Part shown: piece after piece, positions 20,492-46,058 of the stretch
Numbering within the stretch: the first letter of the stretch is position 1
Layout of the letters: every line of letters starts with the position of its first letter
Source of the DNA: Eledone cirrhosa
Taxonomy: Eukaryota
Reading direction: 5' to 3'
NCBI GenBank assembly: GCA_964016885.1
Contig: OZ024742.1
Coordinates: 219,232,001 to 219,296,000 of the forward strand
Length of the DNA: 64,000 nucleotides
Translations under genes and position numbers: made by a program
The notes under the pieces: model-generated
Database searches by the model: none
Told to the model about the DNA's origin: nothing
The model's input: the letters and a program-made list of their open reading frames with translations, nothing else

Positions 20492-21378
20492 AATTAAGTT
20501 AAAGATGTACATCCATATATGTATACTGAAATACTAGTATGTATATGAATACACACACGTATACATATGTAGGTGTACCAAGTTTTTTCACTGGTCACTT
20601 TACTGTGAGTGGCCAGCTATTCCGTATGTAAACACACAGACAAACCGGTTTTTAGAGTCATACCAGTATGACTCTAAAAACCGGTTTGTCTGTGTGTTTA
20701 CATACGGAATAGCTGGCCACTCACAGTAAAGTGACCAGTGAAAAAACTTGGTACACCTACATATGTATACGTGTGTGTATTCATATACATACTAGTATTT
20801 CAGTATACATATATGGATGTACATCTTTAACTTAATTGTTTAAGCGTCAGTCATACAAAAGTGAGTTACAAACGAAACGAAATTTAATTTCGTTTCGTTA
20901 TTTGTTTTTATCGTCTCCGTTGAACCGGTACTTACTCACACTCTATGCAAATTAGTCTGCCCACTACTAATTTTCATAGAAAAAGCATATAACGATATGT
21001 GCTTTTACGATTCTCTAGAGAGGCCGGAAGATAGGTAAATATTGCTGATGAGTTGTAACAACAACGAAACTAGTTCAATATTCCTTGTCTGGCTTTCTGG
21101 AGAATAGAGGAGAGGTGTTTCCTCAAAAACCAGTATGACTCTAAAAACCGGTTTGTCTGTGTGTTTACATACGGAATAGCTGGCCACTCACAGTAAAGTG
21201 ACCAGTGAAAAAACTTGGTACACCTACATATGTATACGTGTGTGTATTCATATACATACTAGTATTTCAGTATACATATATGGATGTACATCTTTAACTT
21301 AATTGTTTAAGCGTCAGTCATACAAAAGTGAGTTACAAACGAAACGAAATTTAATTTCGTTTCGTTATTTGTTTTTAT
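20492..21378 (+). mobile_element. Non-coding HHR retroelement (retrozyme- or pLTR-like): 172-bp-arm palindrome plus partial tandem with about 467-bp period
   Basis: 20492-20663 is the reverse complement of 20666-20837; 20662-20910 repeats at 21129-21377; flanked by (TA)n on both sides. Confidence 0.85.
21038..21082 (+). ncRNA. Minimal type-I hammerhead ribozyme
   Basis: aatattg-CTGATGA-gttg(taacaa)caac-GAAA-ctag-TT-caatatt: 7-bp stem I, intact core, palindromic stem III ACTAGT. Confidence 0.85.
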
Positions 21379-21539
21379 ATATATATATATATATATATAT
21401 ATATATATATATATATATATATATATATACACACACACACATATATATATATGTGTATATACAGTATATGCTTTAATTTTAAATCAGTATATAAAATGTT
21501 TTTAATTTTTTTTCTTTGGAGCATATATGAAGAGTTTGT

Positions 21540-22110
21540 GGGGTCTTTCTAGTCTGGAATAACCTACATACAATTGACCACTTGAGAAACAGCCCTCTTC
21601 TAGACGGAGACCGACAACCTGCAGTGTTTGACCTTGGGATTGATGATAGTCATTGCGTAACTGACGCTAAACTGGGAATTGAAATCATTTGAAACGAAAG
21701 GGGACATCTGTTTGTATTAGTGACATTCTAGTTATAAATGTAATGTCTCCTTTACCACATCTAGCGAGGATTTTAGCTTTGATAATGTGAGGCTGTAGTT
21801 CTGTCACAACCATATGCGTCCCATTGTACAATATTGGCCGATCCAGGTTTCTAAGAAGCATGGAGATCGTGCCCCCTTTTTCAATTGAAGGTTGTGTGGC
21901 CGTATACCGGACGGTTCCAAACTGTTGAGAAATTCAACGAGACAATGAACAGCTTCGTCCTTGACGACAACTTTGTCGATAAATTTATTGGTCTGGCTAC
22001 CTCCAGAGATCATTTACGAGAGATTTTGTTGATGGCACTCACTATGATGCTTTTGGGGTCAGGGGTTGTTCTTTCACACAGCCACTCCTCATTGGAATGG
22101 TGGGGTTAGA
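21540..22110 (-). mobile_element. Helitron Pif1-like helicase fragment (pseudogenised)
   Basis: EFLNSLEPSGIRPHNLQLKKGA...NG...FQFPV...SQGQTLQVVG...GQLYVGYSR, with frameshifts. Confidence 0.85.
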
Positions 22111-22853
22111 AATTGGGGAGCACTTAATTAATTAAGCTTACAACGCTTTCTACAACAGTACAAAATGATGAAGGATCAAAACACCCTCCGGTATCAAGGG
22201 ATTGCTCTTCTATAAATTTAAACGTTGGAGAGGTGCTTATCTGTAACTCCGTGTGGACCCCTCCCTTCCTGCTTCTGTTATTAGCACTGAAGAAATTTCC
22301 GAGGCAGGGAAAGACCGAGTGTTGTCCCCCACTGGCCAACCCATTCGAAAAAATTAACTTATATAAAACTTTTTGATTCTTGGCCAAGCTTAAGTAAACG
22401 GAAGGAACAAATCAAACGCTACAGTACAATGAAGAAACATACTAGTTTAACGCTTGATACAGTAAGAAAAGAGCCTTTATGTTTTCGGACACTTGTGTGT
22501 GTAAATACACACACACATATATTAATACATACATATATTATTTTTTAGTTATGTATTTTATGTTACAATAATTATATATATAATTATTATAACATGAAAT
22601 AAATACATACATATATATATATATTTATATATATATTTATATATATATTTATATATATATATATATATATATATATATATATATATATATATATATATAT
22701 ATTTATATATATATATATATATATGAATGTATATATAGTGTATTTTGCAATACACTGTATGCTTAATTAAAATCATTTTGAAGACCATACGCTATTGCTT
22801 TAAAGTAGTGACAATGTCACTTACTTAAATTTTCAGCAAACAGGGAGAGTAGT

Positions 22854-22900
22854 GAGCTTTGATAAGTACCAACAAGTACGAAACAGAGCTCTGTCAGCTT
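22854..22900 (+). ncRNA. Minimal type-I hammerhead ribozyme, U3:A8 variant
   Basis: agct-TTGATAA-gtac(caacaa)gtac-GAAA-cagagctctg-TC-agct; same family as 12217. Confidence 0.75.
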
Positions 22901-23079
22901 ATCTCCCCATATACATCCATATATATATCGCTATTTCAGAGCACCAATTCTAATTATAAATATATATATATATGTGAGTGTCTATGTATGTATGTTTATC
23001 CCGGGTTCAATCGGGGGTAACCACAGTAAGTAAGGTACTCAATACATAGCAGAGTATAATTTTATTTAAATATAGAAAT

Positions 23080-23131
23080 GGCTTCTACAGGTCTAGAATT
23101 GTTTCATTCGAAGGAAATCATCAGGAAAGCC
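23080..23131 (-). ncRNA. Type-I hammerhead ribozyme
   Basis: Minus strand ggctttc-CTGATGA-tttccttcgaat-GAAA-ca...tg-TA-gaagcc. Confidence 0.6.
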
Positions 23132-23419
23132 CTGATCATTTATAAATTATATATATATTTATAAATTATATATATATATATATAAATTTTATATATATAT
23201 ATATATATATATATATATATATATATATATATATATATATATATATATATATATATATATATGGGATAACAAATTATCATTATAGGTAATCTAGTTAGAG
23301 GTTGTGAGTACTCTGTATTATGGATAGTTTTAACGTACGGCGTTGTTTGACTCAACAAGAGGTTTCCTTAGTTAGGTGGCGAGTTCACGGGAATTCCTAT
23401 GCAGGTTAATCTTGGAGTA

Positions 23420-43556: not shown

Positions 43557-43924
43557 ATATATATATATATATATATATATATATATATATATATATATAT
43601 ATATAGAGAGAGAGAGAGAGAGAGAGAGAGAGAGAGAGTTATATATATATATATATCAGCAGAAAATGCACATAGATACATTAAGCGAAGAGAGAGAGCT
43701 CCATATACTTCGTCAGCCACTTTGCTTTTGTACAATTTCGTGCACTAAATAATGGTAGTTTACGCAAAAGATTGTAGAACCTCTTTGATGCCAAGATGCA
43801 TGTGGGATGGTAACACAACAAAGAATGGACAGGAACATTTACAGGAGTCTTTCAGCAAAAACAGATATAAACGCTATACGCACGTGCATAATCATATATT
43901 ACTTGCTGGCCCGACTCACAGAGG

Positions 43925-44165
43925 TAACGTAGACGTTCGCTAGGATGTCACCGAACAAGTCTGGCATGTTTGTGTAAAGCTTGTAGGCAGACCATCTAAC
44001 CCAGGGGATTTTCCCCTCGTGCAGCTACCCATTGCGTCCCATATTTCCTCGGCTGATATCGGTATTTCGTAACACTCCGCCTCCCAGGATGAGAGCCGCA
44101 GTAGGTCATGGGCGTAGGCTCTGAAATCCATCCCTCGACCCAACACGTCACCGCTCCACAACAGG
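43925..44165 (-). mobile_element. L1/Tx1-type LINE ORF2 fragment
   Basis: IPISAEEIWDAMGSCTRGKSPGLDGLP motif, typical of the region upstream of the RT domain. Confidence 0.7.
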
Positions 44166-44433
44166 ATAAACCGTCTAACCCATGCTAGCGTGGAAGAATG
44201 GAGATAAAATGGTGATGATGATAAGATGAAAGTAGAAGATATATGTATATATATATATATATAGGAAAATGTTGAAGGCCCCGACGGCAGAGCTCAAGCC
44301 GTTTATATATATATAGAGAGAGAAATAGATAGATAGATAGATAGAGAGAGAGAGAGAGAGAGAGAGAGAGAGAGAGAGAGAGAGAGAGAGAGAGAGAGAG
44401 AGAGACAGAGAGAGAGAGAGAGAGAGAGAACCA

Positions 44434-45223
44434 TCTAAACTATAATAAAGGAAGGTCTGCGTTAGTAAAATAAGTTGGATTACTTTGAATAAATAATTGT
44501 TTCTACTTTTGGCACAAGGCCAGCAATTATCCCAGTGCATTACTGGTACTTTATTTTATCAACCCCGTAAGGATGAAAGGCAAAGTTAACCTCGGCGGGA
44601 TTTGAACTCAGAATAGCAAGGGCCGTAACTCTAGGCGTCAAAGCATGGCGTCCGACCCTTTACCGATACTGCTTGAATAAATAATTGTTTCTACTTTAGG
44701 CACAAGGCCAGCAATTACTCAGTTCATTACTGGTACTTTATTTTATCGACCCTGTAAGGATGAAAGGCAAAGAATGAATGAATATTACATAATTTATCTA
44801 CTAAATTTCGTAAACAAAAATAATTTCGTAAAAATAAATAATTTAAAATTGACTTCTTTTCAAAGTTGCACTTCCGGTATATCGTTGCCACCACCACCAC
44901 TTCAACTACCATATATATAGAAAGAGAGAGCGTGTGATGTCAACACTTCCGGTGGCGATCTCTTAAATAAACATACCAATTTTCTGTCACTAATTTTCTC
45001 CTAATGCAGTTTATATATAATATCGTCTTTTTTAATGTATCATGGATTACATTACTGATTACATAAGACAGTGTAACAACGTCTTCGTTCAATTTCTGTT
45101 TATATTGTCAATTACGATTTTATTTGATGTATCATATCTATATGTATATATACTTGCGTATAATATCAATATACACACTACACATGCTAGCAGAAAAGCA
45201 CTCGAAGGGTTTTTTTCTGCTAG
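44434..45223 (+). mobile_element. Non-autonomous Helitron with internal SINEs (paralog of 11119-11798)
   Basis: Same 5' TCTAAACTATAATAAAG and 3' hairpin-CTAG; SINE at 44492-44672(-) plus a partial SINE at 44680-44771(-). Confidence 0.75.
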
Positions 45224-45819
45224 TATATCCTAAGAAGACAGTATATTGTATATATACTAAATACATATTACAGGGAACATGTTCTCAAGAAGGAATCAAA
45301 AGTGACCCTAGGGTGCCATTTCATTAACTGTAAGCTGTGATTTAAAATCGATCTATGTGAATGGTTATCGGGTTCTTTCTCTCTCTAAATATATATACAA
45401 ATATCTTCTACTTTTGACTTAATATTGCTCTGGATAATGTTTATTGAGCTAATTTATTGAGAAGCACATAATTCTAACATATTTAATATGTTACATTTGT
45501 GTGTATATATATATATAAAAGACATGGTCAGCCGACCGGACACTGCCCACAACAGGACAACCCGTATAACCCATGCTAGCATGGAAGAAAGGACGTAAAA
45601 CGGTGATGATGATGATGATATATATATATATATATATAAATAGATAAATAAATAAATAAATTATCGCTCTACATGGCTGAATACAATAAATGTAATCTGA
45701 GTTTTTCGAATATTAATAATAATATTCGATTCGTTTGCAATTATGCAAACAGCCTCATTTTTAAAGCCATGTCAGTAGAATGAGCCCCTCATTCTTGCTC
45801 TTGTGTTAGTATGTAAACA

Positions 45820-45869
45820 GAACTGCAGACACTAATGTTTCTGGGTATTACCCTTCATCAGTGCAGTTC
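45820..45869 (-). ncRNA. Type-I hammerhead ribozyme, canonical
   Basis: Minus strand gaactgca-CTGATGA-agggtaataccca-GAAA-cattagtg-TC-tgcagttc; perfect 8-bp stem I and GUC site. Confidence 0.88.
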
Positions 45870-46058
45870 ACTGTTCACCTGCCAATTGTCAGAGCTAGTG
45901 AAAATATATGATATTTTCTGAAATATACAGTGACTGATCAGCCTGATTTGCATATTAGCAGATCCACTGATCAGCCAGATTAATGGCCAGCTTTGCTAAT
46001 AGAACTCACAACATTAAGTTCTTGTCTGAATATGTCACTATCTGTAAACCAACTTTTG

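Follow-up and report, generated by a model that had tools for sequence, protein, structure and literature searches.

A conserved module upstream of hammerhead ribozymes in Eledone cirrhosa retrozymes is likely a promoter of the host snRNA type

Metazoan non-long-terminal-repeat (non-LTR) retrozymes have been described as low-GC tandem repeats without an open reading frame (ORF) that carry one type I hammerhead ribozyme per unit, form a strongly self-paired circle, and share their genomes with Penelope-like elements (Cervera and de la Pena 2020, PMC7229834; Li et al. 2026, 10.64898/2026.07.22.740005). According to a 2020 review, promoters do not seem to be present in retrozymes, and read-through from outside promoters is the current position (PMC7761336); a promoter of plant LTR retrozymes is mentioned elsewhere (PMC9695139), and in the main text of the 2026 animal-retrozyme preprint the terms promoter, TATA, octamer, and small nuclear RNA (snRNA) have zero occurrences (10.64898/2026.07.22.740005). 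Two animal hammerhead repeats stand as older exceptions to the read-through view, i.e., newt satellite 2, a tandem repeat with an internal snRNA-type promoter driving RNA polymerase II (Pol II) (Coats, Zhang, Epstein 1994, cited in PMC2220036), and the schistosome Sm-alpha repeat, whose own promoter is described as one for RNA polymerase III (Pol III) (Ferbeyre 1998, cited in PMC2220036). Here we analyzed a 64,000-nucleotide stretch of the Eledone cirrhosa genome (GCA_964016885.1, contig OZ024742.1, positions 219,232,001 to 219,296,000 of the forward strand; hereafter the window), which contains three hammerhead elements named E1, E2, and E3. By the sequence criteria of PMC7229834 these are three related families of non-LTR retrozymes; unlike retrozymes as reviewed (PMC7761336), their units carry a module that matches host snRNA promoters. 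The original prediction, made from the letters of this stretch, came with no known description of the pairing of an octamer-like motif with a hammerhead, but an snRNA-type promoter in a hammerhead repeat was already on record for newt satellite 2 (PMC2220036). No report of an element of the U6/RNase MRP (U6/MRP) type in retrozymes was found in the open-access literature.

The motif TATGCAAAT was confirmed at 20944 (+) in E1, 37539 (+) in E2, and 45954 (-) in E3 when the coordinates were rechecked, and the predicted distances from the start of ATGCAAAT to the CTGAYGA core are exact (100, 88, and 92 nt, respectively). ATGCAAAT itself occurs seven times in the window, three of them upstream of a hammerhead core. 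The three elements had been called otherwise divergent, which needs correction insofar as they are homologous, with pairwise identities of 63, 49, and 55% over aligned columns; nevertheless, TATGCAAAT forms the longest invariant run (9 nt), followed by one of 4 nt (CTGA). Extended to 12 nt, the element reads TATGCAAATTAG in E1 (20944..20955, +), where it is identical to the 12-mer preceding the U6 gene L142, and in E2 (37539..37550, +), and TATGCAAATCAG in E3 (45943..45954, -). Copies of the E3 family elsewhere contain the motif two to three times, within a 33-bp repeat.

The positional link between motif and ribozyme, part of the same prediction, is more frequent than chance in the 3.0-Gb genome. 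The pattern ATGCAAAT N75-105 CTGAYGA N8-26 GAAAC gave 29,123 matches compared to 4 for the reversed pattern used as a control, and a TGAG-variant pattern gave 1,662 matches compared to 0. The core-only pattern matched 140,306 times (control, 7,878), with approximately one-fifth of the core matches carrying the exact octamer. In a core-anchored sample, consisting of the first 100 core matches on C1, 87 of which were examined with a 14-unit array counted once, the motif (at most two mismatches, within 115 nt upstream) was present at 15 of 21 superfamily cores and at 0 of 66 other cores; four of the six superfamily cores without it are 5'-truncated copies. The fetched loci yielded 98 distinct modules that fell into 20 clusters at 80% identity, and 18 of these were used after removal of a chance match and an E2 deletion variant.

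The comparison with host promoters covered U1, U2, U5, U6, and RNase MRP. Among the U1/U2/U5 genes, 12 non-redundant promoters have TCAGT in common, located between -55 and -58, together with a TATA-like box near -30; these genes have AATTAAAT near -88. In all four Pol III-type promoters (U6 L141, L142, and the L143 cluster; MRP L198), TATGCWAATKAG starts at -76 to -78, and the TATA box follows 46-48 nt after this upstream element, at -30. The 12-mer TATGCAAAT(T/C/G)AG was found 76-78 nt upstream in 4/4 Pol III-type promoters versus 0/12 U1/U2/U5 promoters. In sequence terms, the 'octamer' of the retrozymes is the opening portion of the Pol III-type upstream element found in this genome, and the U6 proximal element of S. 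japonicum is likewise reported to begin with GTGCGAATGAG, at -71 (PMC5460494). A vertebrate-style distal octamer was considered and rejected, as the distal element of host U1/U2/U6 genes is ATTACCTCCCTT, present at -258 to -289 in 8/12 Pol II and 3/4 Pol III promoters (-258 to -272 in the Pol II subset alone, 8/12), and ATTTGCAT was seen only in two U1 upstream regions, at -399 and -403. In six more U6 copies an insertion separates promoter and gene; in the U6 cluster copies L147, L148, and L150-L153 a common short interspersed repeat, frequent in the window too, sits between the TATA box and the gene.

Each window element carries a TATA-like box at a similar distance from the motif, and no search pattern had selected these elements. 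With the start placed by the host rule TATA+30, E1 has CATATAAC (20986..20993, +) 41 nt after the motif's A and a predicted start at 21017, E2 has TACATAAT (TATATACT in its family; 37582..37589, +) after 42 nt and a predicted start at 37612, and E3 has CATATATT (45903..45910, -) after 43 nt and a predicted start at 45880. The spacing is 40-43 nt in 14/18 clusters and thus near-fixed, whereas the distances from motif to core (86-107 nt) and from TATA to core (43-59 nt) vary. Consistent with this, in a multi-copy E2 subfamily with an 8-nt deletion (L288, L324, and L026) the loss lies downstream of the TATA box and the motif-TATA spacing is kept. Three positions that no pattern fixed are conserved nonetheless, +13 T in 17/18 clusters, +17 C in 14/18, and +18 A in 17/18. 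A pyrimidine-purine step occurs at offsets 72, 72, and 73 of E1-E3, and each predicted start is a pyrimidine-A step, 59, 47, and 53 nt before the predicted ribozyme cut and 16-28 nt before the core. On a Pol III-type matrix, 18/18 retrozyme clusters scored 15.3-19.0 bits, compared to 14.1-17.6 bits for the host promoters in leave-one-out analysis, while 12/12 U1/U2/U5 promoters reached at most 9.0 bits within 300 nt. Of the options first offered for the motif, the internal promoter is therefore supported, and in a more specific form, as the host U6/MRP upstream element followed by a TATA-like box. Altogether, the results make it probable that each unit contains an snRNA-type promoter, with the motif as its upstream part acting in DNA.

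Several observations weigh against this interpretation. The Pol III-type matrix was built on only four promoters, and most of the clusters beyond the window were selected by a pattern that forces the motif and a TATA at +39 to +51, so that their motif scores are circular; moreover, the families share ancestry, and the 18 clusters are related rather than 18 independent observations, four of them having no TATA at +39 to +45. On the host side, 14 further U6 copies (L154, L155, and L184-L195) have no motif at -77; these were set aside by judgement as probable pseudogenes, since they show no distal element and mostly altered 5' ends. Compared with promoters of the type 3 class to which U6/MRP belong (human RPPH1 included), the putative promoter lies inside a mobile unit, and its motif-to-TATA spacing falls 4-5 nt, or about half a helical turn, short of the 46-48 nt of this genome's U6/MRP genes. 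E1 lacks the Pol II proximal element (-12.3 bits), E2 has a weak one, and no good distal element was found in the E1 and E2 units (at most 9.4 bits), that of E4 being weak. Finally, the pairing of helix I reaches 6-15 nt upstream of the predicted start, so that RNA structure also constrains the module, which lies in hairpins within the folded circle.

The strongest argument in favour of a promoter is that two host promoter layouts occur in two retrozyme lineages. The second layout is that of a 310/311-bp hammerhead tandem family without the motif (L285, G000:C1:1239362-1240700; L092; L268), in which CCAGT lies 77 nt before the core (5.6 bits, the best in the unit) and TATAAG follows 27 nt later, which places CCAGT at -56 and the TATA-like box at -29 from the predicted start. 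The host distal element is found in the 3' arm of helix I, scoring 18.6 bits in L092 and L268, a value matched by no position on the + strand of the window, and 14.1 bits in L285. Relative to the predicted start of the next tandem unit this distal element lies at -257, compared to -258 to -272 in the host. That retrozymes captured host snRNA promoters twice, one superfamily holding a normally external U6/MRP-type Pol III promoter within its circle and the second using a U1-type Pol II promoter, is conceivable on these data, though we regard it as doubtful. A relative of the 311-bp family has degenerate hammerhead copies in the window, at 12135-12290 and 22840-22900; the first has TAATCAGTTCCTG 77 nt upstream and the distal-element-like TTTATCTCCCCT after the core.

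For a productive read-through transcript we tentatively, and by a narrow margin over Pol III, prefer Pol II. Between the motif and the TATA-like box, a TCAG at +16 is formed in E2, E3, and E5, and its distance to TATA (26-27 nt) is as in U1/U2/U5 (23-28 nt); +16 ranks second of 450 offsets by mean Pol II-element match, the first, +7, being the motif itself. The host U1/U2/U5 proximal element is matched strongly by TCAGTCACTGTA in E3 (45926..45937, -; 14.9 bits) and weakly by TCAGCC.. in E2 (37556..37567, +; -0.7 bits); E3/E5 copies score 14.9, 13.3, and 11.7 bits, compared to 6.6-19.1 bits for the host set in leave-one-out analysis. In addition, transcription of a full unit must cross T5-T10 runs as well as additional T4 runs, a further T5 is present in the body of 44/130 E1 unit records, and E2 3' junctions extend 2-9 nt beyond T6/T7. 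No 3'-box-like match was detected in the units (at most 5.3 bits, versus 11.6-21.8 bits in 7/8 host genes).

A U6-type (type 3) Pol III promoter producing a 215-355 nt RNA that ends at the T run, with circles arising from rare read-through, is a realistic but less favoured version of the promoter interpretation. The presence of the motif in Pol III-type and not in Pol II host promoters points in this direction, as does the absence of T4 from the predicted start for 355 (E1), 300 (E2a), 354 (E2b), 216 (E3), and 213 nt (E4) before runs of T4-T10, while the Pol II-type 311-bp family has no T run above T4. However, the T-free stretch is weak when compared with shuffled sequences (fractions of 0.06, 0.14, 0.22, and 0.14; the E3 value of 0.015 is biased, as the test sequence was cut at the run), and as proof of Pol III the T-run test is weak. 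Of the E1 3' junctions, 7/12 coincide with the T5 end, and in the window element this T5 run lies at 21372..21376 (+), the upstream unit having the same run at 20905-20909; 3' junctions were nevertheless rejected as Pol III ends, since each family has two junction hotspots at TTA/TTTAT beside (AT)n and E2 ends pass the run. Also against Pol III, an amplifying E1 subfamily has T5/T6 in its body, an RNA ended at the T run would lack the promoter and could not propagate it, and the motif-TATA spacing differs from that of U6/MRP; the corresponding insect spacing, from proximal sequence element A to TATA, is reported to be conserved to 1-2 bp (PMC1761439).

Outside the promoter interpretation, the motif might be kept as an RNA signal, i.e., as a hairpin or loop to which the reverse transcriptase (RT) or a host protein binds, with transcription by read-through from outside, which is the published default (PMC7761336). 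The original prediction had placed the motif in the 5' arm of a stem-loop in all three elements. This was borne out for E1 (-6.6 kcal/mol, z -3.1) and E2 (-11.1 kcal/mol, z -2.4), whereas the downstream hairpin of E3 is at chance level (-4.3 kcal/mol, z 0.14) and a stronger hairpin (-25 kcal/mol, z -5.6) holds its motif in the 3' arm. The stable E1 and E2 hairpins, a stem that E4 (L199 and L223) preserves through a compensatory T-A to G-C replacement relative to E2, and the stability of E1 and E2 units folded as circles (z of approximately -8) are consistent with an RNA role, and the substitution suggests that this stem is retained in the E2/E4 lineage, where it belongs to the overall self-pairing of the circle. 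Nevertheless, RNAalifold found 0 consensus pairs in 19 modules (an ungapped alignment, which can hide shifted stems), contrary to a hairpin conserved across families; in per-cluster folding the pairing partner of the motif is downstream in E1, E2, and E4 but upstream in several other clusters, the motif sequence staying invariant while its partners change. The 3' junctions of insertions lie around a different hairpin, 40-115 nt upstream of the motif, and an RNA signal leaves unexplained both the U6/MRP identity of the motif and why the sister family has a distal element at -257. We consider this explanation unlikely. Descent without function, which the full-length alignment of E1, E2, and E3 at 49-63% would allow, is highly improbable, because the invariant run of the motif exceeds that of the catalytic core (9 versus 4 nt), a 12-mer evolving neutrally would be unlikely to keep 11 positions invariant at such divergence, and the match to host promoters would be a coincidence.

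The promoter of newt satellite 2 reportedly consists of an octamer plus a proximal sequence element, and the Sm-alpha repeats are said to use A and B boxes. Unlike in the newt repeat, the octamer-like motif here is proximal (about -72), is a host Pol III-type element, and precedes a TATA-like box, and at least 18 sequence clusters together with a second promoter design occur in one genome. Unlike in Sm-alpha, no A-box/B-box pair was present in any of the six units scanned, which also speaks against a tRNA-derived short interspersed element (SINE).

By folding predictions, the cores of E1, E2, and E3 can each form a type I hammerhead with three helices. The E1 ribozyme (21025..21098, +; core 21045-21075, predicted cut after 21075) and the E2 ribozyme (37613..37672, +; core 37628-37658, predicted cut after 37658, and a U.U where helix II starts at its base) share a helix III of 2 bp and a palindromic loop, a form reported to need dimers (PMC4209133), and the E3 ribozyme (45812..45880, -; core 45861-45828, predicted cut after 45828) has a 3-bp helix III and a GUC triplet. 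E1 alone was scored by Rfam (HH9, 37.7 bits, E 6e-6, under the gathering score of 52). Hits to miRNA families in Rfam fall below gathering and were dismissed as (AT)n/(AC)n artefacts.

The elements have the structure expected of mobile units. The E1 insertion (20492..21378, +; defined by self-BLAST and sequence) comprises an inverted 5' piece (20492-20663) and 1.5 units of a 467-bp retrozyme with an (AT)n end; elsewhere in the genome this unit forms tandem and back-to-back arrays with copies that are 100% identical. The E2 insertion (37314..37935, +) belongs to a family with a unit of about 430 bp (429-538 bp) and has a short inverted 5' piece and an (AT)n end, and the E3 insertion (45660..45996, -) is a single, 5'-truncated unit for which no complete tandem unit was recovered. 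The tandem units are short and low in GC (0.34-0.36), with a longest Met-ORF of at most 68 amino acids (aa). Inverted 5' pieces and ends at TTA/TTTAT adjoining (AT)n are an insertion structure with which Penelope-like elements have been described (PMC8557442), and elements encoding an RT with a GIY-YIG domain are present as broken copies in the window and as intact 784-aa frames elsewhere in the genome.

The Penelope-like family in question, with a C-terminal GIY-YIG domain, occupies 26700-29600 and 33500-36400 of the window as well as L349-L355; in its intact copies, which are in tandem, a separate 455-aa frame precedes the 784-aa frame, and neither a hammerhead nor the motif was found. Its 3' tail TTCCGTTTACC resembles the E2 junction TTCCGTTTAT, over 9 nt only. 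The idea of a single element at E3 with hammerheads on both strands was abandoned, because in the genome search query positions 2-273 and 290-581 matched different families, the opposite-strand hammerhead at 46067 belonging to a family separate from E3. A further AT-rich hammerhead family with a minimal helix III is found in the window at 36829-37265, 42321-42592, 46056-46267, and 24860 (-); the motif was present in 0 of 14 of its upstream regions and no promoter was found. Eight near-identical E5 copies, approximately 50-105 kb apart at G000:C1:143343558-143791155, are probably carried by a large segmental repeat. A metagenome scan gave at least 116 matches, and among the matches listed 1 of 116 passes the helix check. 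On metagenome contig L442 (490-661, -), ATGCAAATGAG precedes two TATA-like boxes (+44 and +53) and a hammerhead core at +109 that is well formed and has a T6 run behind it; this single-copy match without an Rfam hit is possibly the same pairing in another eukaryote, or chance. Downstream of the elements, at 54528-55019 (+), the window contains an exon with a SAM/Pointed domain (E 4e-9), probably of an ETS-family gene.

Under the promoter interpretation, the following cycle can be proposed. Host snRNA-gene factors would bind the module, and transcription would start about 30 nt after the TATA-like box, a short distance before the core. The polymerase would cross the T run and the promoter of the next unit to reach the next hammerhead, and two cuts would free a unit-length RNA that circularises, carrying the promoter sequence as hairpins. 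A Penelope-like RT may then copy the circle into (AT)n sites, giving arrays in tandem and inverted arrangement, and this copying would rebuild an upstream promoter for every unit.

Altogether, the results indicate that the conserved module is real and is likely a promoter, which would let these repeats transcribe themselves. A start site and two promoter elements are thereby predicted to the base for a retrozyme, and the U1/U2/U5, U6, and MRP promoter elements of this genome have been defined as a by-product of use in small-RNA expression tools. A rolling-circle unit can carry an upstream promoter and a linear SINE cannot, and the host snRNA element, dispersed in approximately 29,000 copies, could compete for transcription factors. 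If the double capture is true, helix I of the second lineage's ribozyme contains a U1-type distal element whose distance to the following start is fixed by the unit length of 310 bp; animal retrozymes would then in general be expressed through captured promoters rather than by read-through, and promoter geometry would determine how long a unit is.

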